A program made the translations under genes and the position numbers. Source: a candidate division WOR-3 bacterium (lineage in GTDB: Bacteria; Hydrothermota; Tepidihabitantia; Tepidihabitantales; Tepidihabitantaceae). From it: DNA of 64,000 bases. Below, piece by piece: positions 19,553 to 49,492 of this stretch; position 1 is the first letter of the stretch, and each line of letters starts with the position of its first letter. The notes under the pieces are model-generated. The model was not told the origin of the DNA. It saw nothing but the letters and a program-made list of their open reading frames with translations, and did no database searches. The stretch spans positions 912 to 64,911 of the forward strand of contig VGIR01000002.1 in the NCBI GenBank assembly GCA_016867815.1, given 5' to 3'.

Positions 19553-21181
19553 CTACGGCGCGGCACCCGGCCGTGCCGGTCCGTCTGCGGCCTGGTATGA
19601 CTCCGGCCGGTCCACGTCGTAGAAGCGATACGGACGGTCCAACCGGGAGTAGTAGCTCCGGTCCGGCAGGAGGGCCATCGTCGTGTCAAAGTACTGACTG
19701 AGGACGACCCGGAATGTGTTTACCGGTGAGATTGAGTCGTAGAGCAGGGCAGATGTCTCGGTCCGGCGGCCGGAAGGCGGGAGATACGCCGCGTAGAGAA
19801 TGGCCATACGCTCCTCCAACTGGCTCTGCGCGGAGTCGCCCCAGGAGACCGTTTCTCTCAGCCCGTGGTCGGCCTGGATGATGATGACCGGGGGGCGCTG
19901 CGACTGCGCCATGATTTGTCGCACTACGGCTTCGAGCAGCGAGCCGAGGTAGAGTGCCTGGCCGCCGTAGCTGCTAACGTTAGCAGGCAAACCGCGCGGG
20001 CGGAAGATAAAGGGCCGGTGCGGACTCAGGACGTGGGCGAAGACAAACACCGGGTGACGGCTCCGCCCCGCGTACGGCAGGTTCCGCAAGGTGTAGAGCA
20101 CGCGGTCGCGGTGCCGGTCGACCGAGGAGGCGTGCCGCATAATGAGGATGTCTCGGAGCAGCGTCGTGTTCACCAGGATGCCCTGGAACTCGGTCAGAGA
20201 CCAGGGCGGGGACAGGCGCACGTCGGCGGCGAACTGGTCGGTGCCGGCATCGCCCGAAGCAAACGACACGGTCTTGTAGCCTCGGCGGCGCAGAAAACCG
20301 GCCAGCCGGCTGTTCTTGATCATGCCGAGCAGCGGACCGCCGTTGTCTGATTCCGTGCCCACTGCCGCGGCCAGGCTGTCCAGGTAGGTGAAATTGAGCG
20401 ACGAGGCGAGTGAGGGATGGGTCCAGGCGTAGTTCGAGCGTGCCCGGTCGGCGACGAAGAAACCAAGGCTCTCGAGTTTGCCGAGGAACGCGCTATTGTC
20501 GGCGTTGTGGCCGGACTTAAGCACGTCGGACCGGACGTAGGAATCGGCAATGATGTAGTAGATGTCGGGGTAGCCGGCGCCGGTCGCCGCAGCTTCCTGT
20601 CCGGTTCCGTGCTCGGCGCGCGGCGGACGATGAGCGAAGGCGCGCAGGCCCGTCGCCAGATTGACGGTGAGGATGCCGCCGGCGACGCAGTTCAGCACGA
20701 CCGTGACCCCGGACAGAGAACGTCGAGCCCTGCGCTTCCGGCGTCGGACGACCAGCCAGACTCCGATGCCCAGCAACACGGTCCCTCCCAGGAGCAGTTC
20801 CGCGCTCGCAAACACCTCGGGCATGTATGAGCCGGCGACGTGCCCGTAGAGAAAGAAGAGCACGAGGAACAGCGACACGAGCAGTGCCGCCCGCGCCGCG
20901 CTGTGGAACAGAAGCCCGAGGATCGCCCAGAGGACGGCAGTCATTGCCAGGGAGAGCGCGATGGGCACCAGCAATTCGCGGGGGTCAATCGGGATCCGGG
21001 CGCCGTTGTAGGCGTAGACGAAGAGAACCGGAGCTATCGCGAACAGGACCGGGTGAAGCGGCAGCGCGCTACGGCCCGGTTTCTGGTTGGCTTGTTCTTC
21101 TCTCGCCGCTGGTAGGGTTCCGGAGCGGGCGCCCTGGAGATGGGGCGGCACCGGACGCTCAGGACCGGCTTTCCTCGTCAC
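19553..21181 (-). CDS. LtaS/MdoB-like membrane-anchored sulfatase-family protein (phosphoglycerol/phosphoethanolamine transferase superfamily)
   Basis: 542 aa with about 5 N-terminal TM helices followed by an alkaline-phosphatase/sulfatase-like domain (…YPDIYYIIADSYVRSD…). The start codon is uncertain. Confidence 0.65.
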   Translation of the reverse strand: MTRKAGPERPVPPHLQGARSGTLPAAREEQANQKPGRSALPLHPVLFAIAPVLFVYAYNGARIPIDPRELLVPIALSLAMTAVLWAILGLLFHSAARAALLVSLFLVLFFLYGHVAGSYMPEVFASAELLLGGTVLLGIGVWLVVRRRKRRARRSLSGVTVVLNCVAGGILTVNLATGLRAFAHRPPRAEHGTGQEAAATGAGYPDIYYIIADSYVRSDVLKSGHNADNSAFLGKLESLGFFVADRARSNYAWTHPSLASSLNFTYLDSLAAAVGTESDNGGPLLGMIKNSRLAGFLRRRGYKTVSFASGDAGTDQFAADVRLSPPWSLTEFQGILVNTTLLRDILIMRHASSVDRHRDRVLYTLRNLPYAGRSRHPVFVFAHVLSPHRPFIFRPRGLPANVSSYGGQALYLGSLLEAVVRQIMAQSQRPPVIIIQADHGLRETVSWGDSAQSQLEERMAILYAAYLPPSGRRTETSALLYDSISPVNTFRVVLSQYFDTTMALLPDRSYYSRLDRPYRFYDVDRPESYQAADGPARPGAAP

Positions 21182-21583
21182 TGTTTTTGTACCTGAAGAG
21201 ACGTTTGAAGAAAGTCAGGACCCGTCGCCAGAACACGCCCAGCGCAAACAGCCCGCCCAGCAGGCCGCCAATCAGCAGTTGCACGACGTAGCTGCCCGTT
21301 CCCGGGTCCAGATACGCCTGCGCGACCGAAGGCAGCGCCAGCGGCAACAACGTCAAGAGCAGCAGGGCTCGGGCCGGACTGCCGGGCGCAGGTTTCACGC
21401 GCCTACTTTAGCCGCGCAGATTCAGGCAGTCAAGAGACCCGTGACGTCCGATTGTGGCAAGCGGCCGTCACCAAGTCGGATTGCGGCGGAATGAAAGCGA
21501 CACAGTGGCAGTGTTGACGCCGGACTTGTTGCGGTTGCTGCTGATTTGACAGAGGCGGACAATGGCCTATAATTCAGGCGCGA

Positions 21584-21657
21584 GGGCGATTAGCTCAGTC
21601 GGCTAGAGCGCCTCTCTTACACGGAGGAGGCCATCTGTTCAATTCAGATATCGCCCA
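21584..21657 (+). tRNA. tRNA-Val (anticodon TAC)
   Basis: Cloverleaf folded by hand. The acceptor stem pairs GGGCGAT with ATCGCCC, the D-stem GCTC with GAGC, and the anticodon stem CCTCT with GGAGG around loop CTTACAC. The T-arm pairs ATCTG with CAGAT around loop TTCAATT. The discriminator is A and there is no encoded CCA. Confidence 0.8.
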
Positions 21658-24653: not shown

Positions 24654-24770
24654 TGGTCACAGGCATATCGTTCTTTGATAATTCGGATGTAACCCAAAGC
24701 GTGCTCGGGTTTGTGCCATAACTAGTTGATTCAAGACATCAGAGCAGACAGACCCCTAAGATTTTTTGCT

Positions 24771-26308
<1,538 letters not shown>

Positions 26309-40177: not shown

Positions 40178-42217
40178 CTACTTTTTCTCGTCCACCTTGC
40201 TAGGGATAGCGCTGAGCTCGTCAAGAAGCTCACGGAATCGTTTCGGCTCGATGTCCCCTGTGTCCAGTAGGACAGAAAGCAGCTCTCCCGTGCGGTGCAT
40301 GAGGTCAGGGCAGTCGTCATTCGGAGACCCCCCGGCACCCCCAGGCTGCGCTCTTTCGGCAAGTGCCTCCAGTTCCGCGGCCTTGCTCTTCACTCGATCG
40401 TCCCGCGACGACACCATGTCCAGCGCTCGGCGTGCCGTTCGGAGAAGACGCTCCCGGTGGGACTCAGTCCAACTCCCGCTCCGCCCCTTTGCAGCTTCCA
40501 GCCATCCCGCAACATCCTCCTTGGTCAGCGGATCTTCGTGTTCCTCTTGCGCCACGATTTCGCTACCATCGAGCTTGTCCAATCCAACGTAGGTCACCGT
40601 CTTCCCGGACTGGCGATGCTGCAGCGCAAGCGACAGTTTGCGGTTCTCGTCCAGCGACACCTTCACGTCCACCAAGGGCAATTCGCTGTTCGGCCTAAGG
40701 CCAACGGGGACATGACCGAGGAGTTGGTATGACCAGACATCGCTTCCTACCGTCGACTTCGCTGCGTCCGGCACCTTGGAGACAAGACGGAATTTCACTT
40801 GCAGGAGTGTCGGGTCGCCGTATACGACTGAAACGGTGCCATCAATGGGGTATGTTGAGTTCGGGGGGATCGCAGTGTCGAAACGCGGGGCATGGCCCTT
40901 GACGAAGAACGTGGTCCCATACCCGTAGGGCGACCGCTTGACGACTGGCTCGATCACACGACCAGCCTTCAGGGCTGCTCCCTGAGCTACACACTCCATT
41001 GGGTTCACAGGGAAGCCACGCTGTTCAATCTGGTCAATCTGGGTTAGCACCTCTGCTCGGACACCGAGTGTGGCAAGCTCTTCTCGCACAGCCTTTCTGA
41101 TACACGGCATGTGCACAGGCCCGCCGACAAATAGCACATGGTCCAGCTCCTTCGCGGCGACATTGGCCTGACGCAGAGCAACGCCTATCGGTGTGCGGCT
41201 CTTCGCAAGAAACGACTGGTCATCCCCGCTGGCAGACTCAGAGAGAAGCCGCTCCAGGTCTGCACGGGTCAGCTCTAGCGACTGACCATCGGGTGACTCC
41301 ACGACCGTGGATTGTCTCTTGGAGAGTCTGATTTTCGCTCGCTCGACCTCGCTACGCAGCATGGCTTTCATCTTCGGGTCGGCATCAACGTCGTTGAGGC
41401 CGTGCTCATCAACCAAGTGGCTATACAGAACGTCGTCCATGTCGAGCCCGCCGAGCTTCTCGTTACCTGACGTCGCCGCCTCTCCGGGCGCGAGCTTGCC
41501 GCCGACCTCGGTAATGTGCAGGACCGTCACGTCCAGGGTACCCGCACCCATGTCGTAGGCAAGAATAACGGATTCCTTCTGAAGCTGAAGTCCGTACTTG
41601 ACCGCCGCTGCAGTCGGCTCAGCAATCGTGCCGAAATCGGTGAACCCGGCGTCGGCCGCCGCTCTCTGTATGGGTTGAACCCGAGTGTCCTTGAAGTACG
41701 CAGGTACGCTGATGACAGCCCGGCTGATCAGACCTCCGCCGGTGAACAGGTTGAGCGCCCGGTTCTCGGCGTCCTCCTTCACCTCGCGGAGTATGAACGT
41801 CAGAACCTCGGTTGGCGTAAGCGTACGGCCAGCCACGTTGATGAGTATGCCTCGATCAGGCCCTTCGATGATGTCGTACTGGAATCGCCTCACGTCACCG
41901 CTCTTGCATGCGGCGGCGTATGACAGGCCGACGAGCCGTTTGACGCCCCAGATGACGTGTTTGGGATTGATGGCCCAATCTTCCTTCGCCTTCTGGCCAA
42001 CGTACTTGACGTTGCCGTCAGCGCCAAAAGAGACGAACGACGGGAACTGCTTGCCGTAGAGAGTCTTCCCGTAACGACTTTCTATCATAGCTGGTGTGCT
42101 ATCGCGGGCGAATGCCGCAGCCGAGTTGAAAGTCCCGAGGTCGATGCCTATTGTGCGTTCTTCCACATGTTCTCCTTCAAGCGGCGGGAGCCACCTTCTC
42201 CTGGCCTGCACTGACAA
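40178..42217 (-). CDS. Atypical Hsp70-family ATPase (DnaK/HscC-like nucleotide-binding domain with a divergent C-terminal region)
   Basis: 679 aa. Hsp70 nucleotide-binding-domain motifs are present: IGIDLGTFNSAAA (phosphate 1), VISVPAYF, DMGAGTLDV (phosphate 2) and LFVGGPVHMP (adenosine). The C-terminal ~250 aa lack the canonical substrate-binding-domain signature. The start is uncertain: the annotated ATG overlaps the upstream gene by 41 nt, and an in-frame GTG lies about 50 nt downstream. Confidence 0.85.
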   Translation of the reverse strand: MSVQARRRWLPPLEGEHVEERTIGIDLGTFNSAAAFARDSTPAMIESRYGKTLYGKQFPSFVSFGADGNVKYVGQKAKEDWAINPKHVIWGVKRLVGLSYAAACKSGDVRRFQYDIIEGPDRGILINVAGRTLTPTEVLTFILREVKEDAENRALNLFTGGGLISRAVISVPAYFKDTRVQPIQRAAADAGFTDFGTIAEPTAAAVKYGLQLQKESVILAYDMGAGTLDVTVLHITEVGGKLAPGEAATSGNEKLGGLDMDDVLYSHLVDEHGLNDVDADPKMKAMLRSEVERAKIRLSKRQSTVVESPDGQSLELTRADLERLLSESASGDDQSFLAKSRTPIGVALRQANVAAKELDHVLFVGGPVHMPCIRKAVREELATLGVRAEVLTQIDQIEQRGFPVNPMECVAQGAALKAGRVIEPVVKRSPYGYGTTFFVKGHAPRFDTAIPPNSTYPIDGTVSVVYGDPTLLQVKFRLVSKVPDAAKSTVGSDVWSYQLLGHVPVGLRPNSELPLVDVKVSLDENRKLSLALQHRQSGKTVTYVGLDKLDGSEIVAQEEHEDPLTKEDVAGWLEAAKGRSGSWTESHRERLLRTARRALDMVSSRDDRVKSKAAELEALAERAQPGGAGGSPNDDCPDLMHRTGELLSVLLDTGDIEPKRFRELLDELSAIPSKVDEKK

Positions 42218-43490
42218 TTACGTCCGCTGGGCGTAGCACTTCAAGTTCTTCAGGCGAGCCACCTCTGATGCAGTAGCCTTTGCGGGCTACAGACAGCACC
42301 GTGCCCGTCGGTGATGAATCTGGGCGCTTCTCCAAGATGTTGTGTTGCAGATGGACGAACGGCCGACCCATCTCCACGCGGATTTCCTCGATTCCTACGT
42401 CTTCGATCGTCCGTCGTGCGACGCGCAGTTCCCTCGCAAGCTCGCTGTTCATGCCACCGCGCGTCTCGGTCAGTTCGAGGTTGTCTAAGAGCGTGAACAG
42501 GCCGTTCGCAACTGCGTGGTAGCGCGAGCGGGCCTCCCTTGTGACCTCGCCGCCTTCCACTCCGAAGCGCCAGATGCTCGCCCCTAGGTCTCGCATCTTC
42601 TCACGCGCAGCGTCCATCGTTTCCGCAACAGCCGACGCCGTGTCAGCCAGCTCGCCGGCGGTCTGCCCTTCTCGGGCGACGTCAGCAGCGGATCGAGTTT
42701 CAGCGCGCCCCTCTCGTGGTCCAGCAACGAACCGCACAACGAAAGCTGTGACCAAGCATGCCAGAAGCAACCCCCCAACGATGGGAATCCAGAGGGGGAT
42801 ACCCCGGGACGAGCGAGACGGTTGGTTGGATGTGGTCACTAGAGTGCGAGCGAGCATCCGAAGTCTATCGCGGAGTGTGGCTAGATCAGGGGCACTGGAC
42901 ATGTGACCGCCTGCGGCTCGCGCCAAGTCTGCAAGCAGTGACGTGTTAGCGCCCTCTGCGCCGGCGAGCCCGGTTACTAGCACCCGGGATGCTGTCCGGC
43001 GCAGACGCGGGGCCGTCTGTTCAAGGAGGACGGCCGCTGCCGAGTCTGTTGCCCTAGCTCCCCCCGGGACATCAAGCCAGCCGTCGGTGAGCAGAACGAT
43101 GACTCTGTTGGCCATCGGGCGAGCAGCGGCGAGCAGCGAGTCGGACATCATCAGCCCAGGATTCACGTCAGTATAGCCGTCTGCGAACTTGAGACCTTTG
43201 GATTTGAGACCCTTCAGTATCGCTGCGCTGACGCCATCACGGCTAGAGTCGGCCATGACGGTCCACGGTACTATCAGTCTGGCCTCTGACCCGAAGGCCA
43301 CGACTGCAAGTCGGCATTGCGCATCAAGGGAGTCAGCAAACTCCGCCACTGCCGCCGCGGTTGACGCCGGTACGGAGCCGGAGTTGTCAATCACTAGCAC
43401 AACATCGGTCAGTCTCTCGGTCGGAGCCTGCGCTGAGAGAGCGATCGCTACGGCTACCAACAGCAGTACGAACGTGCGCACGGCGGTCAT
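42177..43490 (-). CDS. Fusion protein: signal peptide + periplasmic vWA (MIDAS) domain + single TM + cytoplasmic GrpE-like nucleotide-exchange domain
   Basis: 437 aa. It has signal peptide MTAVRTFVLLLVAVAIALSAQA, vWA MIDAS motif VLVIDNSGS...LLTDG, and TM helix IPLWIPIVGGLLLACLVTAFVV. The C-terminus ...DVGIEEIRVEMGRPFVHLQHNIL...PTGTVLSVARKGYCIRGG...EVLRPADVIVSAG matches the GrpE C-terminal block (G.PFDP..H.A...PGTV..V.QKGY.L..R.LRPA.V.V). It overlaps the AAA+ gene by 4 nt (ATGA). Confidence 0.7.
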   Translation of the reverse strand: MTAVRTFVLLLVAVAIALSAQAPTERLTDVVLVIDNSGSVPASTAAAVAEFADSLDAQCRLAVVAFGSEARLIVPWTVMADSSRDGVSAAILKGLKSKGLKFADGYTDVNPGLMMSDSLLAAARPMANRVIVLLTDGWLDVPGGARATDSAAAVLLEQTAPRLRRTASRVLVTGLAGAEGANTSLLADLARAAGGHMSSAPDLATLRDRLRMLARTLVTTSNQPSRSSRGIPLWIPIVGGLLLACLVTAFVVRFVAGPREGRAETRSAADVAREGQTAGELADTASAVAETMDAAREKMRDLGASIWRFGVEGGEVTREARSRYHAVANGLFTLLDNLELTETRGGMNSELARELRVARRTIEDVGIEEIRVEMGRPFVHLQHNILEKRPDSSPTGTVLSVARKGYCIRGGSPEELEVLRPADVIVSAGQEKVAPAA

Positions 43491-45658
43491 GAGTTCTCCT
43501 TCTTCTCTGCCCCGAAGCCGATGCGCTTTGGCTTCAGCTTCTTGGTTCCTTCCTGAACTCTGGCAATAGCCGCAGTGAGGTGAGCCATTTTCACCACAAT
43601 CCCGCGCGGCGCGAACTTGTTGTCACGCAGGGCGGAGAATGCGGCCTCGCGGCATACCTCGGCCAACTCGGCCCCGGAGAAGCCTTCCGTGATGGCCACA
43701 AGCCGGTCGACACGCACGTCGTCCGCCAGCGGTTTGCGCTTCAGGTGTACGTTCAAGACGGCCTTGCGCGCTCCGGCGTCCGGCAGTGGGACTTCAACTT
43801 GGTAGTCGAATCTGCCGGGCCGAAGCAGCGCGGGGTCGAGGATGTCCGGTCGGTTGGTGGCCCCGATGACGAACACGCCGTCCGCAGACTCGGCGCCGTC
43901 TATCTCGGACAGAATCTGGTTGACCACCGTGGCGTCCGCGCGTTCGCCGTAGCTGCCGAGTCCCTCCGACCTTGCGGCGGCCACCGCGTCAATCTCATCG
44001 AAGAAGACCACGCAGGGGGCGTTCTGCCGGGCTTTGGAGAAGATGAACCGGACACGGTGTTCAGATTCTCCGTACCACTTGGAGCGGATTTCCGGGCCTT
44101 TGACGAAAATGAAGTTGGCACCGCACTCGGCTGCCGCGGCCTTGGCGAGCAGGGTCTTTCCTGTCCCCGGTGGGCCGTACAGAAGGATGCCCTTGGCGGG
44201 CTTCACATCGGCGGCCTCGAAAGCCTCACGCTTGGTCATCGCGTAGGTGATGTTCTCGACCAGGAGTCGTTTCACGTTGTCGAGCCCGCCGACTTCGTCC
44301 CAACTCACGTGCGGGATTTCAATCATGAACTCGCGCATTGCGGATGGCGAGACTGTGGCCAGCGCCTGGTTGAAGTCAGCCTGTGTCACCTGCGTGTCGG
44401 CCGGGACTTCCTTGAGTTCCTCCATACCGGCCACGGGCATCACGCGCCGGAGTGCGTCATACGCCGCCTCACGGCACAGAGAGGCCAGGTCAGCCCCAAC
44501 GTAGCCGACGGCACGCTCTGCCACCGACGCCAAGTCGACCTCAGGTGACAGGGGCATGCCACGCGTGTGTATGAGCAGAATCTCCCGGCGCCCCGAGGGG
44601 TCCGGAACTCCAATCTGGATCTCGTGTTCGAACCGCCCTCCCCGTCTGAGCGCGGGGTCGATCGCGTCGATGCGGTTCGTAGTGCCGATAACCACGACAG
44701 GCCCCTTCTTCTGCTTCAGACCGTCCATTTGAGCAAGGAAAGTCGCAACAACCCGCTGCTCAAGGTCACCGTGCGCAGACTCGCGCTTTGGGACCAGGGA
44801 GTCGAGTTCGTCGACGACTACGATGGCTGGTGCGTGGTTCTCGGCTTCGTCGAAGATACCGCGAACGTTCTCTTCCGTCTTGCCGTACATCGACGTGAAC
44901 AACTCCGGCCCGCTCACGCAGTAGAAGTTGGCCTTGATCTGGCTGGCAAGAGCCTTGGCAATCAGCGTCTTTCCGGTTCCGGGCGGACCATGGAGGATGA
45001 TGCCGCGCGGCGGCGTAATCCCCATGCGCTGGAGGACTTGTGGAAACCGCAGTGGATACTCCACGATCTCGCGAACTCTCGCGATTTCACGGCCCAGGCC
45101 GCCGATGTCGTGATAGCCCAGGGGAGTCTGCACGACCGCCTCTGGCTTCGTAGTGACCTGCGTGTCAGCGGTAATGGCGCAGACCCCCTTTGGATCGGTG
45201 CGTACCACCACGACCGGTCTCGGCTCCCCTGTGAAAGTGAAGAAGGCAGTCTCCTCGCCATCGGTGATAGGCTTGCCCATTATCCCTTCGCGTTCCTTGT
45301 CGCTGAAGTCTACCGGTACGTTCAGTTGTACTCTGCGGGCCTTGCTCGGGGACGAGAACTCAACCGACACGCGGTCCGTAGTCTCGACAGCGAGACAGCG
45401 TAGCTTGTATCTGTCAATCTGCAGGCGGGTCCGCGTGCCCGTTCTTACGTCGTCAATGATGCAGCCGCAGGCGCGGCCGTGAGCCCGGATGGTGGCGTAG
45501 CAGAGGCCGCCACTTGCGCGAGCGGATTCGAAAGCTCTGCGCGCGTCTACGTGCACGTCGGTCACGCATTCCAGCAGGCCGCGGTGCGTGCCGTCCAGGT
45601 CTATGCGACCCGACACCTCGGCAGTCAGCTTGGCCTGCGTCAACAGACTGCCCCACAA
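43487..45658 (-). CDS. CDC48/VCP/VAT-like AAA+ ATPase (N-domain + tandem D1 and D2 AAA modules)
   Basis: 723 aa with a TTG start. It has an N-terminal double-psi-barrel-like region and two complete AAA cassettes (GPPGTGKTLIAKA...DELD...; GPPGTGKTLLAKA...DEID...), each with second-region-of-homology arginines. Confidence 0.9.
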   Translation of the reverse strand: MWGSLLTQAKLTAEVSGRIDLDGTHRGLLECVTDVHVDARRAFESARASGGLCYATIRAHGRACGCIIDDVRTGTRTRLQIDRYKLRCLAVETTDRVSVEFSSPSKARRVQLNVPVDFSDKEREGIMGKPITDGEETAFFTFTGEPRPVVVVRTDPKGVCAITADTQVTTKPEAVVQTPLGYHDIGGLGREIARVREIVEYPLRFPQVLQRMGITPPRGIILHGPPGTGKTLIAKALASQIKANFYCVSGPELFTSMYGKTEENVRGIFDEAENHAPAIVVVDELDSLVPKRESAHGDLEQRVVATFLAQMDGLKQKKGPVVVIGTTNRIDAIDPALRRGGRFEHEIQIGVPDPSGRREILLIHTRGMPLSPEVDLASVAERAVGYVGADLASLCREAAYDALRRVMPVAGMEELKEVPADTQVTQADFNQALATVSPSAMREFMIEIPHVSWDEVGGLDNVKRLLVENITYAMTKREAFEAADVKPAKGILLYGPPGTGKTLLAKAAAAECGANFIFVKGPEIRSKWYGESEHRVRFIFSKARQNAPCVVFFDEIDAVAAARSEGLGSYGERADATVVNQILSEIDGAESADGVFVIGATNRPDILDPALLRPGRFDYQVEVPLPDAGARKAVLNVHLKRKPLADDVRVDRLVAITEGFSGAELAEVCREAAFSALRDNKFAPRGIVVKMAHLTAAIARVQEGTKKLKPKRIGFGAEKKENS

Positions 45659-45855
45659 TCGTCATTGTGATGGATGATGACTCGGTCTAGCATGTGGAGG
45701 TCATAGCGGAAGGCTAGTTCAAGTCAAGCAGCGCGTCGGCGCCGTGGCGGTGGTGAAGAGTTACCGGACGACCCAGCGGAGGACGCGTCGGAGCGACGCG
45801 AGCTTCCAGTTTCCAGTCTGCAGGTTGCAGTGCAAAGGACCAATCGAAGAGATGC

Positions 45856-45893
45856 CGCGCAGGTCAAAGGTCAAAAGGCAAAGGTCAAAGGTC
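45856..45893. repeat. Tandem heptamer repeat (AAGGTCA-like) x5
   Basis: The sequence reads aggtcaaaggtcaaaaggcaaaggtcaaaggtcaag. Confidence 0.6.
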
Positions 45894-46335
45894 AAGATTG
45901 CCGGATGTCCAGGCCGGGTCGGGTCAAGTTCCGGCGCCGGAAATGGCGAGAAGAGAATCAGCCGGAAGGGGGTCCTGACCGAGTAGCGCGCGAAGGGGAA
46001 GAACCTTGAGGGGCAAGCGAAAATCTGCCCCTCGTCTTTCACGAGGCACGCCCAATCGCAGGCAGCAGTGCCCGCGTCCGTCTTCTCGGCCCTGAACTCG
46101 CCCCGCATCGCCCAGCGACCCACTGCGTCAGTTGCAGCCGGGTTTGCGGCTCGCCATTCAGCAGTAGTCACGCTCTCGGGCAGACTCTCACCTCCCTCTT
46201 CGCTGGCCGCCTTAGCTACGACCTAGCTCAGGGCTTGACCCCGAGCCTTGCTTGCGACCCGCAACACCCGTCTGCCCGCACTTCAACCCACGCCCTGACT
46301 CGCGGCCCCGCTTAGGACTCGACCCAGGATTCCGC

Positions 46336-46455
46336 ATCTCAATCGGCACTTCACTCGGCATTTCACTCAGCACTTGAGTCGGCAACTCAGTTAACCACTC
46401 AATTGGCATCTCACTCAGCTACTCATTCGGTATTTCACTAGTCCAGTCAATCGAG
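46336..46455. repeat. Degenerate 12-nt tandem array (~10 units, consensus AyTTCACTCGGC) in a long low-GC non-coding spacer
   Basis: The units are atctcaatcggc, acttcactcggc, atttcactcagc, acttgagtcggc, aactcagttaac, cactcaattggc, atctcactcagc, tactcattcggt, atttcactagtc and cagtcaatcgag. Related 'attcagtc' and 'gagtcact' motifs recur up to about 46620. Confidence 0.65.
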
Positions 46456-46919
46456 TAGTAACTAAAGCATTCAATCCTCGATTCAGTCGGCAAGTCAGCC
46501 GGAGATTCAGTCCTTACTTCACTTGCCAGGTCGCTGCTCGATTCAGTCGAGAGATTACCTGTCTACTCATCTGGGAAATCAGGCGGGGAGTCACTCCCGG
46601 TGTGACTGGGGGAGTCACTGGGGGATTCCTGATGTCAGTGCTGATGCAGGCGCTGGGGCGAATAGGATAGTATATTGATTCTATGATGGTTAGGCAGTCA
46701 CACCGCCGCGCTTGACCGTCGATTCTCTGTGCAGTACTGTGTTGAGCTAGGGTCACGTCTCTGTGAAGCGTGCTGATGGGCTCTGAGTACTGCATTCCGT
46801 GGTCCTCGGTGAACAAAGCCCGGCCGGTAACGGTGAAGACCACGCAATATGGATATGACCCGAGCAGTCTTTAGGGAAGTCAACCCGCGGGGGTGAGGCC
46901 CTGCGAATGGAGGAGAACA

Positions 46920-47444
46920 ATGAGTGACCCGGTGAAGCGAGCGGAGCGGTGGAAGGCAAAGTACAAGACCCAGCGGGTGAAAGAGACGCTGGACGACATC
47001 CGTGAAGACATGGCCAAGCGCTACGAAGCCGCGATTGCCGACGTCTGCGTGATGGAGGGCAAGGTCAAAGAGGTCATCAACGCGGCCGGGGTTTCGACCT
47101 CGCTGTACGTGCCCTACCTCAACTTCGGTCGGCAGCTCTACAAACTGACGCGTCAGCAGAACATCACGGGCGAGAGCTTTGCGATGGCTGCCCAGGTGCT
47201 CCTCGACAAATGGGCGGCGCGCGGCTGCGACGCCTGCACCGGGACACGAGCGGGCAGGCACTGCTCGAAACCGTGGTCGCCTTTCCGGTGCTCCTGTTCT
47301 TCATGCTGGTCGTCATGGAGTTGTCGCTGCTGTACAATGCCAAGCAGTTGGCAAACTACGCCGCGTTCTGCGCGGCCCGCACGGCAGCGGTCAACGGCGT
47401 CAGCGCTACCGGGAAAACGCACTTCGCCGCGGCGATGGCGATGA
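46920..47444 (+). CDS. Hypothetical protein at the head of the Tad locus; the 3' part is questionable because of a frame overlap with the next gene
   Basis: The ATG at 46920 is preceded by GGAGGAG. The first ~100 aa (MSDPVKRAERWKAKYKTQRVKETLDDIREDMAKRYEAAIADV...) are protein-like. The last ~75 aa are Cys/Ser/Trp-rich, junk-like, and overlap the TadE-like gene by 234 nt. Confidence 0.3.
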   Translation: MSDPVKRAERWKAKYKTQRVKETLDDIREDMAKRYEAAIADVCVMEGKVKEVINAAGVSTSLYVPYLNFGRQLYKLTRQQNITGESFAMAAQVLLDKWAARGCDACTGTRAGRHCSKPWSPFRCSCSSCWSSWSCRCCTMPSSWQTTPRSARPARQRSTASALPGKRTSPRRWR

Positions 47445-47842
47445 GTCCGCTTTCCTCCGCGACCAACGTCAATGCCAACGAGATCCTGCTCGACTACGGC
47501 CTGACGAACCCGACCCAGACGGTCGCGGCCATCTGCAGCATCCCCGGTTTCCAGGGCGACAACGACAAGTGGCTGGCTCGTCTCGCCAACGCCTACCTGA
47601 GGACCGGTGCGCCTTCTTTTGCCGTGGCAAACTACGGGACGCGGAAGAACGTCACCGCGAACGTCACCTACGTCTATCGCTGCAGCTTCTGGCCGTTCGG
47701 CATCGTCTGGGGCCAGTCGGCAATCACCACCTACTACAACTCGCTCCCGGCCATCATCAAGCCTTTCGCCACGTTCGTCAATACGTGGCGCTGGAACATT
47801 GTGATTCACGGCCGCGCCGTGACCGACTACTGGTCATCCTAG
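47210..47842 (+). CDS. TadE-like pilus assembly / pseudopilin protein
   Basis: 210 aa reading ...HRDTSGQALLETVVAFPVLLFFMLVVMELSLLYNAKQLANYAAFCAAR, the TadE N-terminal motif with a class-III signal-like hydrophobic helix. Confidence 0.7.
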   Translation: MGGARLRRLHRDTSGQALLETVVAFPVLLFFMLVVMELSLLYNAKQLANYAAFCAARTAAVNGVSATGKTHFAAAMAMSPLSSATNVNANEILLDYGLTNPTQTVAAICSIPGFQGDNDKWLARLANAYLRTGAPSFAVANYGTRKNVTANVTYVYRCSFWPFGIVWGQSAITTYYNSLPAIIKPFATFVNTWRWNIVIHGRAVTDYWSS

Positions 47843-47869
47843 CGGCATGAGGGTACAGGGGGAAACAAC

Positions 47870-49492
47870 ATGAAGCCGTCTTTCAGCCAACGATCGCCGG
47901 TCGCTCTCGGCCGGCGATTGCTCTCTGACACCAGCGGGCAGGTGCTGCTGTTCGGCGCCGTGCTGGTAGTGGCGATTCTGGCATTCCTGTTCGTGATACC
48001 GAACGGAACCCAGATTACCACCAAGAAGATGCGCGCGCAGACCGCGGCCGATGCCGGCGCCTTCACCGGTTCGGTCTGGCTGGCCCGCGCCACCAACCTG
48101 AGCTCGAACATGAACATCGGCATCAAGAGCGTATACGAGTGGACAACGGTGCTGACCGTAGGCTCGGCCCTGGCACAGGCGCTCTATTCCGACACGCTCG
48201 ACTCTTCGGTCCATGCTTTGGGCGGGCAGATCACGCTGGCATTGTTCGGCAGCTCGAACCCGGTGACGGTGCACACCACCGAGTACCCGAGTGCGATCCG
48301 GAAGCTGGATACCGCCGCGCAGTGGCTCTACTCGCTGCAGGGCGACATCGCTACCAGCTTCCACAGCGTGGCAGCCACGCTCGGCACCCAGCAGGCCTGC
48401 AGCAACGTGGGCGTGGCGTATCCGCCGACTCAGGCGGCGGGAGGCTGGGCGATTGTCCGGACCAACGACACGATACCGCTGCTGTTACCGACCACGGCCG
48501 GCGACAGCGTGATCTACGCCGGTCTGAGCCAGCTAGCGCTTGCTCTGGATACTCTTCCGACCCTGGATCCCAACATCACGCCCGCCTACGGGCAGGTGAT
48601 AGTCAGCCCGTCCACCTGGGACGTCTGGGCCTACTATTCCGATACGAGCCTCTGGTTTGACCGCGTCGACAGTATCTACCACTGCTACAAGAAACCCGTC
48701 ATTTTTGAGTTCCAGAACAACTACAGCGGGAAGGTCGACACCGGGATCCAGTACATGGACCCGAGTGACAAGGGATACCCCGACTACAATCGCGGAGACA
48801 GCTGGCCGAAGTGGGTCTTGTACTGTTCCGAGGGTGAAGGGAATCACCACGTCTTCATCTGGCCCAACGGGGTCGGCAATCCTCCCTACAAGAACACCGA
48901 CCAATGGACCTTGATCAACAACCCTCATCCCGGCAACAACCGCTACAAGTTCGACACCGTCTGGACGCATGTACACCTGGCCAAGAGCACGGATACGTCC
49001 AGCCTGAGTGACTACGTGAGCCCCGAGGAGTCGATCTGGCTCGAGGAACACGAAGACGAAATCCGCAGCCACTACTGGAAATCCACCGGGTTCTACACCG
49101 GCGTCGAATCCACCGTCCCCTACAAGGGACCGAAGGTCCGGCCCCGCCGGGTCAATCCCGGCCGGGAGTTTCGCACCGTATGCTATGTCTGGCGGCAGGG
49201 AGCCTCAAGTGCTCCCTACGGCCTGGGCGCGCCGCTGGGCGGTACTTTCTTCCCGCGTAACGCGGTGGCGGCGTCAAGCCCGATGTTCGCGGTTGCCCGG
49301 TCAGTGCCCTACCAGACCCTCAGCAGTCCCACCCAGAACGAGCTTTTCTTTGAACCATCCTGGGACGTCAAGCTAACTCCGTTTGATTCGCTGGCGGTCG
49401 TGGAGATCACCGGCGATACGGCGTATTGCGGGCGGACTGGGTACTGCTTCGACAACCTTGAGGAGCTGCGCAAGTATGCGTTGCTGCCATAG
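47870..49492 (+). CDS. TadG-like large Flp-pilus assembly protein (Tad/PF13400-like N-terminus)
   Basis: 540 aa reading ...LSDTSGQVLLFGAVLVVAILAFLFVIP...KKMRAQTAADAGAFTGSVWLARA... Confidence 0.7.
   Translation: MKPSFSQRSPVALGRRLLSDTSGQVLLFGAVLVVAILAFLFVIPNGTQITTKKMRAQTAADAGAFTGSVWLARATNLSSNMNIGIKSVYEWTTVLTVGSALAQALYSDTLDSSVHALGGQITLALFGSSNPVTVHTTEYPSAIRKLDTAAQWLYSLQGDIATSFHSVAATLGTQQACSNVGVAYPPTQAAGGWAIVRTNDTIPLLLPTTAGDSVIYAGLSQLALALDTLPTLDPNITPAYGQVIVSPSTWDVWAYYSDTSLWFDRVDSIYHCYKKPVIFEFQNNYSGKVDTGIQYMDPSDKGYPDYNRGDSWPKWVLYCSEGEGNHHVFIWPNGVGNPPYKNTDQWTLINNPHPGNNRYKFDTVWTHVHLAKSTDTSSLSDYVSPEESIWLEEHEDEIRSHYWKSTGFYTGVESTVPYKGPKVRPRRVNPGREFRTVCYVWRQGASSAPYGLGAPLGGTFFPRNAVAASSPMFAVARSVPYQTLSSPTQNELFFEPSWDVKLTPFDSLAVVEITGDTAYCGRTGYCFDNLEELRKYALLP

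Follow-up and report, generated by a model that had tools for sequence, protein, structure and literature searches.

A promoter-locked array of 12-bp repeats beside the gene for a capsid-like protein in a candidate division WOR-3 bacterium

ParR, the DNA-binding protein of type II partition systems, binds iterons that stand beside its own promoter in parC (ten repeats of 11 bp around the parMR promoter in plasmid R1; pSK41 is another example). Its cooperative dimers build a superhelical nucleoprotein filament and autoregulate, the protein has a ribbon-helix-helix fold, and the adjacent gene encodes the motor ParM. Omega of pSM19035 and ParG of TP228, which share the ribbon-helix-helix fold, act as cooperative dimers on arrays that precede promoters and are made up of 7-bp heptads or of ACTC boxes, with periods of 7-8 bp, 7-12 units and a plasmid context. 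ParB-parS, H-NS/Lsr2 and the DNA-coating histone of Bdellovibrio nucleate at preferred sites and polymerise along DNA. The virions of SIRV2, AFV1 and SFV1 are built from asymmetric units that each comprise one dimer of the capsid protein and 12 bp of A-form DNA (PMC5517147, PMC6105669), and the SIRV2-type capsid fold, which defines a virus realm, has been described as unique to those archaeal viruses (PMC12282232). Here we describe an array of 12-bp repeats that lies, in fixed register with a promoter, upstream of a small gene whose product is homologous to the major capsid proteins of the SIRV2 type (Adnaviria). Both are located in a stretch of 64,000 nucleotides (the window) from contig VGIR01000002.1 of a candidate division WOR-3 bacterium, the array in the spacer at 45659-46919, which is bounded by a CDC48-like AAA+ gene (43487-45658, minus strand) and by the ATG at 46920. 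An earlier note, made from the letters of this DNA, had described the repeats of the spacer, and it missed the coupling of the 12-nt array to the small gene at 46920, which it read as the start of the Tad locus.

The 12-bp array and its promoter

The array covers 46338-46625 and consists of 24 units of 12 bp, which stand in perfect register without an indel when written in rows of 12. About ten units had been counted in the earlier note, and 'attcagtc' and 'gagtcact' repeats had been listed apart from them; the array is real but larger, and the two further repeats are present but are later units of the same single array. The repeat finder TRF detected a period of 12 or 24 at 46334-46439, 46480-46510 and 46585-46625. 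The unit consensus in the window, nTCAsTCGGCAn, is the local form of the family consensus AAGTCACTCGGC with the palindromic core AGTsACT, and the base frequencies at the unit positions agree with those of the family. All 18 occurrences of T[C/G]ANT within the 288 nt of the array share one phase; 5000 dinucleotide-preserving shuffles contained a mean total of 4.4 such motifs and a largest in-phase count of 6. The self-match at lag 12 peaks at 0.59 in the array (window mean 0.30, standard deviation 0.048) and is at least 0.5 nowhere else in the 64-kb window. Over 45000-48500 the window agrees at 100% identity with four independent assemblies, which were obtained from different samples with two pipelines; this removes the concern, raised earlier, that the repeats might be an assembly artefact.

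The description of the spacer as non-coding and locally AT-richer was correct. No conserved open reading frame (ORF) was found in 45659-46919: stop codons interrupt all six frames of the array interval, and the candidate ORFs of the spacer lack the codon-position GC pattern of the real neighbour genes and have no Pfam match. GC content is 0.49-0.53 at 46300-46700, compared with 0.60-0.66 in the flanks. The units are contiguous and lack the unique spacers that separate the repeats of a CRISPR, as had also been recognised.

Pooling 800 units of the class I loci gave C-(A/G)-A-G-T-[C>G]-A-C-T-C-G-G, in which the positions around the centre form symmetric pairs (-1 T/+1 A with frequencies of 0.88/0.90, -2 G/+2 C and -3 A/+3 T). 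The units of a sister clade (about 70% protein identity) read GGTT-[C/G]-AACC with the core GTTsAAC, and positions +/-2 and +/-3 differ between the clades on both half-sites. Because the palindromic core changes symmetrically on both half-sites, the unit appears to be a dimer-type site in double-stranded DNA, and its symmetry points to a symmetric protein dimer. The N-terminal basic helix of the protein encoded by the small gene differs by clade as well (RWKAKY versus RW(M/L)(V/T)KY, plus residues 28-34); this co-change of core motif and helix is suggestive only.

The best sites of the array are those proximal to the promoter, at 46585-46625, where GGGGAGTCACTCCC (46585-46598) is followed by GTGACTGGGGGA and GTCACTGGGGGA with G-run spacers. 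No other part of the array is as well conserved among the loci, and 43 of 46 loci have at least two GGGG/CCCC runs in it. A full palindrome is found in 53-59% of the loci at the two proximal units and in at most 25% at the other units; the proximal units are thus the best palindromes, with G/C runs on either side (GGGGAGTsACTCCCC). Of the dinucleotide steps, GG/CC is the most A-philic, and because it favours the A form, G-run spacers at the best, promoter-proximal sites would suit nucleation.

Loci L030 (1234-1470), L032, L037, L046, L066 and L082 possess a second, distal 12-bp array with the core rAGCTC....GAA, which adjoins the main array on the upstream side and keeps to its register. The trace of this second array in the window is faint and consists of AGCT at 12-nt spacing around 46205-46260.

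Related loci were compared in a set of 80 that were fetched from metagenomes and several more that were found by exact look-up. The DNA similarity between the window and its relatives is confined to 46291-47231/47234. On the left it begins, in the comparison with loci L025 and L028, at 46291 with a lead-in of degenerate units (46291-46337, plus strand), and the start of the array is common to other loci. The order of elements, namely array, conserved AT-rich block, sigma-70-type promoter, leader, ribosome site and small gene, is shared by all 51 distinct related loci from metagenomes whose upstream sequence is long enough. Where at least 700 nt precede the homolog, as they do in 51 distinct loci, the highest 12-nt self-match of the whole locus lies immediately before the gene in each case; in 45 of them this maximum is at least 0.5, and this value is reached nowhere in the remaining flanking DNA (228 kb). 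No neighbour gene is conserved beside these elements in 77 loci. Gene neighbourhoods vary from locus to locus, and the downstream DNA is hypervariable, with toxin-antitoxin, restriction-modification, Abi and secreted-protein genes. Since the similarity is limited in this way and no neighbours are shared, the intergenic region between the CDC48 and Tad loci is not the conserved unit; on comparison of the loci, this unit is a self-contained module of array, promoter and small gene at 46291-47231.

Array and promoter are connected by a linker of 86 bp (46626-46711, plus strand) whose columns are conserved without gaps in 46 loci anchored on the -35 box. On the same strand it contains the blocks CAGTGC (46636-46641), an AT-rich TATA-like block (46662-46690) and a TTAG box (46690-46693). 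The AT-rich patch pointed out in the earlier note is therefore real, and it is a conserved block upstream of the promoter. The sigma-70-type promoter (46712-46740, plus strand) has the -35 box TTGACC at 46712-46717, a spacer of 17 nt and the -10 box TACTGT at 46735-46740. Of 60 distinct upstream regions, 51 contain the pattern TTGACN-N17-TANNNT, and neither its spacer of 17 nt nor its offsets vary. A generic promoter and terminator scan with a stricter consensus gave nothing in the region, and the promoter emerged from the locus comparison alone; transcription would start at this predicted promoter. It is followed by the leader (46741-46919, plus strand), which varies between clades from about 45 to about 290 nt and carries the ribosome-binding site GGAGGAG at 46909-46915. 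The leader has no unusual RNA structure (z -0.99) and no Rfam match.

The register between array and promoter is fixed. When 46 distinct loci are anchored gap-free on the -35 box, the array cores fall into the same columns, so that tandem repeats stand, as iterons do, beside the promoter of the gene that follows them, 86 bp upstream of the -35 box. Over 23 consecutive units, each T-S-A centre is kept by 53-94% of the 32 class I loci (by at least 69% at 22 of these units), and at the next unit by 19%; in view of this abrupt drop, unit number is conserved as well. Some loci have longer arrays, such as L069 with about 58 units.

The linker of the window also contains an extra core, CAGTCACACCG (46695-46705, plus strand), which is the inverted partner of CGGTGTGACTG (46598-46608) in the array. 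These arms of 11 nt are 100% complementary and bracket the AT-rich block, and this inverted repeat (I9) may serve for looping or as an operator site near the promoter, confined to the clade of the window. The GTCAC core borne by its second arm lies 7 nt before the -35 box.

The capsid-like protein and its copy in the window

The module ends with the first 104 codons of the small gene (46920-47231, plus strand), whose intact relatives encode 123 aa. More than 300 metagenomic homologs of the ORF at 46920 were found, about 123 aa long and without Pfam annotation; two homologs in candidate division WOR-3 metagenome-assembled genomes (MAGs) are labelled 'hypothetical protein'. A search of 1.84 billion representatives (E <= 1e-3) gave a family size of 837 clusters at 50% identity. 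The AlphaFold2 model built from 60 homologs (pLDDT 90.4) is all-helical and has no strand; a long N-terminal helix and a C-terminal helical bundle are arranged as in the DNA-wrapping capsid proteins. The ten top matches of this model in the PDB, found with Foldseek, are all Adnaviria capsid proteins. The best is that of SIRV2 (3j9x, probability 1.00, TM 0.74 over 125 columns), and the others include SSRV1, AFV1 ORF132 and ORF140, SFV1 and the C-terminal domain of the SIRV coat protein. Among the viral predicted structures of BFVD, the SIRV coat protein is the top match.

Profile comparison led to the same proteins. A broad profile of 75 diverse members (A4) matched, in the PDB, SSRV1 (6wq0, E 4.4e-8), SIRV2 (3j9x, 1.1e-7), SFV1 (6d5f, 9.4e-5) and AFV1 (4.7e-4 for 5w7g_B, and 3e-3), and nothing unrelated below E 0.1. 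Aligned with hhalign to the SIRV2 capsid protein, the family reached a probability of 95.4% (E 1.8e-8, 109 columns). A narrow profile (A3) was insignificant against both the PDB and the SIRV2 capsid protein, and the broader alignment was needed. The superfamily is represented in Pfam by PF12193 (Sulf_coat_C), PF21660 and PF25647. Of these, PF12193 matches 44 of the 75 members at E <= 1 (best 1e-7), and the closest intact relative of the window protein (P0006) stays below its gathering score with 18.4 bits against a cut-off of 25.2 (E 0.0025). NCBIfam and PHROGs gave no informative match. Moreover, the motif R..(K/R)W.AK(Y/F)N in the N-terminal basic helix is common to the family and the viral capsid proteins. 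Profiles and model thus place the protein as an outlying member of the SIRV2-type capsid superfamily that Pfam leaves unannotated.

The gene does not lie in a viral genome. The window is a bacterial chromosome with a bacterial 16S rRNA gene, AcrB, OmpA, NadE and a Tad/secretin locus, and the marks of an Adnaviria element (a linear viral genome, virion and replication genes, an archaeal host) are absent from it. No relatives were found in IMG/VR, GenBank phages or plasmids, and the array DNA gave chance matches to coding repeats only when compared with plasmids. A distant member (33% identity) in locus L111 (171-2489) has no array and stands in a tight cluster of small genes beside an rve-family integrase, which hints that mobile elements may carry part of the wider family.

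In the window, the alignments to every relative end after codon 104 (47231-47234). The reading frame continues as a spurious out-of-frame tail (47232-47444, plus strand), which overlaps tadE; the GC content by codon position in this interval (0.44/0.89/0.61) shows that its real frame is that of tadE. The TadE-like gene (47210-47842, plus strand; PF07811, E 1.6e-8) is the first gene of the Tad pilus locus and lies outside the module. The earlier placement of the spacer between two divergent operons therefore needs correction on its right side, where the gene at 46920 is no part of the Tad locus, which starts at about 47210. An exact look-up of the resulting 174-aa ORF found no record because the window copy is truncated. 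A chimera of the assembly at 47231 was considered and rejected, since the breakpoint 47231/47232 is identical in four independent assemblies. The retained 104 aa are 97% identical to relatives and differ from the closest one (L022) by 16 synonymous and 3 nonsynonymous codons. The rearrangement breakpoint in the window and the hypervariable downstream DNA of the relatives suggest a hotspot of insertion at the 3' flank of the gene.

A possible assembly track and its alternatives

About 24 palindromic sites lie exactly 12 bp apart, and they do so solely beside the gene for a homolog of proteins that take up 12 bp per dimer; for this reason the array is read most simply as a template along which the dimers line up. 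On balance we consider it probable, by slightly better than an even chance, that the array is a track for the cooperative assembly and the autoregulation of the adjacent protein, with one dimer per 12 bp. Dimers of the protein would bind the palindromic cores (7-9 bp), best at the promoter-proximal units flanked by G runs, and would polymerise cooperatively along the track with the stoichiometry of the viral relatives. About 24 dimers would cover the 288 bp as a short nucleoprotein filament, and the track might also be a nucleation point for further spreading. The -35 box follows at a constant distance of 86 bp, and through this register the occupancy of such a filament could feed back on the promoter; by reporting the pool of free protein it would combine autoregulation with titration. 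The identity of the binder, the stoichiometry, the A form of the DNA and the sign of the regulation are what we infer here. The earlier suggestion of a multi-site binding array or a nucleation site for a nucleoid protein fits indirectly with the palindromic core, its symmetric change between clades and the fixed promoter register. The further step, that a cellular relative of Adnaviria capsid proteins forms a virion-like filament with A-form DNA on a sequence-phased track, again with one dimer per 12 bp, is a tentative one, and we think that it has rather less than an even chance of being correct.

Several points weigh against an assembly track. The adjacent protein is connected with the array by co-occurrence, period and symmetry. 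Its viral relatives bind DNA non-specifically (PMC5517147), so that sequence-specific phasing would be a new property. The covariation of core and helix between clades is essentially one evolutionary event. The centre base of the units is biased (C 0.73, G 0.14) and their flanks are asymmetric, which makes them direct repeats with a palindromic core and not perfect palindromes. Since 86 bp separate the end of the array from the -35 box, RNA polymerase could be occluded in a simple way only if binding spread past the specific sites. Distant family members (43-48% identity) have no array, which therefore is not required for the function of the family. Finally, the window copy has lost the last 19 conserved codons and with them its last helix; the start of the Tad locus stands in their place.

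Two of these points can be described further. Among the distant relatives without an array, one has a single GGGGGAGTCACTTCCCC upstream of the gene and another has GGGTCACCC beside a TTGAC box, which suggests that an operator-like site expanded into an array in one clade. With regard to the truncation, the array cores of the window are preserved as well as those of loci with intact genes, and intact copies that are 91-93% identical occur on contigs of the same metagenome series. The track of the window may be served in trans by an intact paralog, the window copy having been clipped recently, or it may be a young relic.

The sites might instead form a multi-site operator or enhancer through which another protein encoded elsewhere, for example a global regulator or a nucleoid protein, controls the highly conserved small gene, and the match of 12 bp would then be a coincidence. 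Palindromic cores in register with a promoter fit any dimeric regulator, and it is by argument that the adjacent protein, a relative of non-specific binders (PMC5517147), is tied to the sites. However, the 77 loci contain no second gene that is conserved with the module, and the period equals the footprint of the relatives of the adjacent protein, whose N-terminal helix changes together with the core motif. Moreover, 23-24 contiguous sites are far above the number that typical regulators have. We regard control by another protein as unlikely.

It is likewise unlikely that the module is the remnant or a working part of a mobile or virus-like element, in which the array would be a packaging or assembly signal or resemble a terminal repeat, and of which the window copy would be decaying. 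The homology to a capsid protein, the varied neighbourhoods, the toxin-antitoxin, restriction-modification and Abi genes in the hypervariable downstream DNA, the rve integrase beside one distant member and the truncation of the window copy at a rearrangement junction would all agree with such an origin. In contrast, the searches of IMG/VR, GenBank phages and plasmids gave no relatives, hallmark genes of viruses are not among the conserved neighbours, and the flanks are of housekeeping type (tRNA synthetases; 16S rRNA, AcrB and NadE in the window). Purifying selection acts on the gene, the register of the array is locked to the promoter and not to a genome end, and no such array precedes the capsid gene of SIRV2 itself.

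Far less probable is an action of the array as RNA, either as a long leader or as a non-coding RNA transcribed from upstream that would, for example, be a sponge for an RNA-binding protein. Short repeated motifs are typical of protein-sequestering RNAs and transcription of the array from upstream is conceivable, but the covariance search of Rfam that the earlier note had proposed for its non-coding RNA gene found no match at gathering scores (at E <= 10 it gave two chance-level hits, both outside the array), the array folds with the same energy as its shuffles (z -0.10), the conserved promoter follows the array instead of preceding it, and the symmetric half-site changes would have no rationale in single-stranded RNA.

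We give as little credence to a minisatellite that arose by slippage, neutral or structural and without a binding partner, or to a decayed coding sequence of tetrapeptide repeats: slippage makes tandem arrays readily, a period of 12 is a multiple of 3, and the array DNA diverges faster than the gene (65-72% versus 85-93% identity among the closest relatives), yet the units, diverged as they are, keep T-S-A in 53-94% of the loci at 23 unit positions without indels, their number is conserved in 32 distinct loci, and they hold a fixed register to the -35 box. Translation in six frames yields tetrapeptide-like repeats on both strands, and the coding variant was rejected because every frame contains stops; in none of the loci do gene callers predict a gene at the array, and the upstream gap of about 640 nt in the relatives is empty of calls.

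Surroundings of the module and comparison with known systems

The left half of the spacer (45659-46290, about 630 nt) is lineage-specific and lies outside the module. None of the more than 80 related loci aligns left of about 46291, and judged by these alignments this half is unrelated to the array. Its longest ORF (45761-46171, minus strand) corresponds to a gene of 115 aa that has been called in public assemblies of the window's own population. This orphan has no Pfam match, its sole match among 5.8 billion proteins belongs to that population, and its GC content by codon position (0.59/0.56/0.72) is ambiguous. A hidden gene in the left half was therefore rejected, as only this population-confined ORF is found there.

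The fivefold heptamer of the earlier note was recovered as a microsatellite, (AGGTCAA)x5, at 45861-45895 on the plus strand (TRF period 7, 5.0 copies, score 56, 85% matches). It is also outside the module and includes four perfect AGGTCAA copies, which read TTGACCT on the minus strand. The repeat lies about 200 nt upstream of the CDC48-like gene, and its motif was not found upstream of the 52%-identity CDC48 relatives L001 and L002. The CDC48-like double AAA+ ATPase belongs to an operon (40178-45658, minus strand) that also encodes a VWA protein, whose C-terminus resembles GrpE, and an Hsp70-like protein. Among genomes, the ATPase has its nearest relatives in Acidobacteria and Saccharimonadales MAGs, with 52% identity, followed by archaea with 35-38%; as identity is 52% at best, they are of no use for synteny.

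Elsewhere in the window, a complete bacterial 16S rRNA gene stands alone at 24767-26308 (plus strand) and a tRNA gene lies at 21584-21657. The absence of 23S and 5S rRNA genes from the 64 kb means that the rRNA genes are unlinked. In locus L098 (410-2440), the small gene is found beside a homolog of the sulfatase-like gene that lies 25 kb away in the window (19575-21441), which indicates a genome rearrangement within the lineage.

Full-text literature searches found no report of bacterial or cellular homologs of the SIRV2-type capsid protein, or of such an array. If the bolder reading, with a virion-like filament, is correct, the protein would be the first cellular homolog of a fold regarded as virus-only, either as a cellular ancestor of the capsid or as a domesticated capsid. 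A family of 837 clusters with at least some members in bacterial chromosomes bears directly on the origin of the capsid protein. The array would be the first natural DNA sequence that has evolved to template such a filament, and would act as a protein-counting autoregulatory device or a chromatin device. As a feedback device that counts protein, a track of 23-24 sites in promoter register would be unusual. The 12-bp track also offers a defined substrate for DNA binding, for the ratio of one dimer per 12 bp and for the transition from B to A form.

As an autoregulatory tandem operator or centromere array, the locus would belong to a kind already known from ParR-parC and omega. It shares with ParR-parC the contiguous short direct repeats beside a promoter, and differs in the all-helical SIRV2-like fold of the protein, in the period of 12 bp and in the number of units, which is 23-24 or more. 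The combination of a ribbon-helix-helix binder with an adjacent gene for a motor NTPase, which defines ParR-parC, is not found here, as no NTPase gene is a conserved neighbour. With omega and ParG the array has in common that many contiguous short sites lie upstream of a promoter, and its ACTC half-site presumably resembles the ParG boxes; the fold is again another one, the period is 12 bp, the units are more numerous and there is no plasmid context. The likeness to the proteins that coat the nucleoid is one of concept, a small, abundant protein that nucleates and polymerises, and to our knowledge none of ParB-parS, H-NS/Lsr2 and the Bdellovibrio histone has an array phased to its footprint or a SIRV2 fold. 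The Adnaviria nucleocapsids of SIRV2, SSRV1, AFV1 and SFV1 are similar to the protein in fold and profile, and the period of the array equals the 12 bp of DNA per capsid dimer in the three solved virions. The viral proteins are encoded by archaeal viruses and coat a whole linear genome non-specifically, whereas here a single gene is found in bacterial chromosomal contexts without viral neighbours, beside a short, sequence-specific track that is locked to its own promoter.

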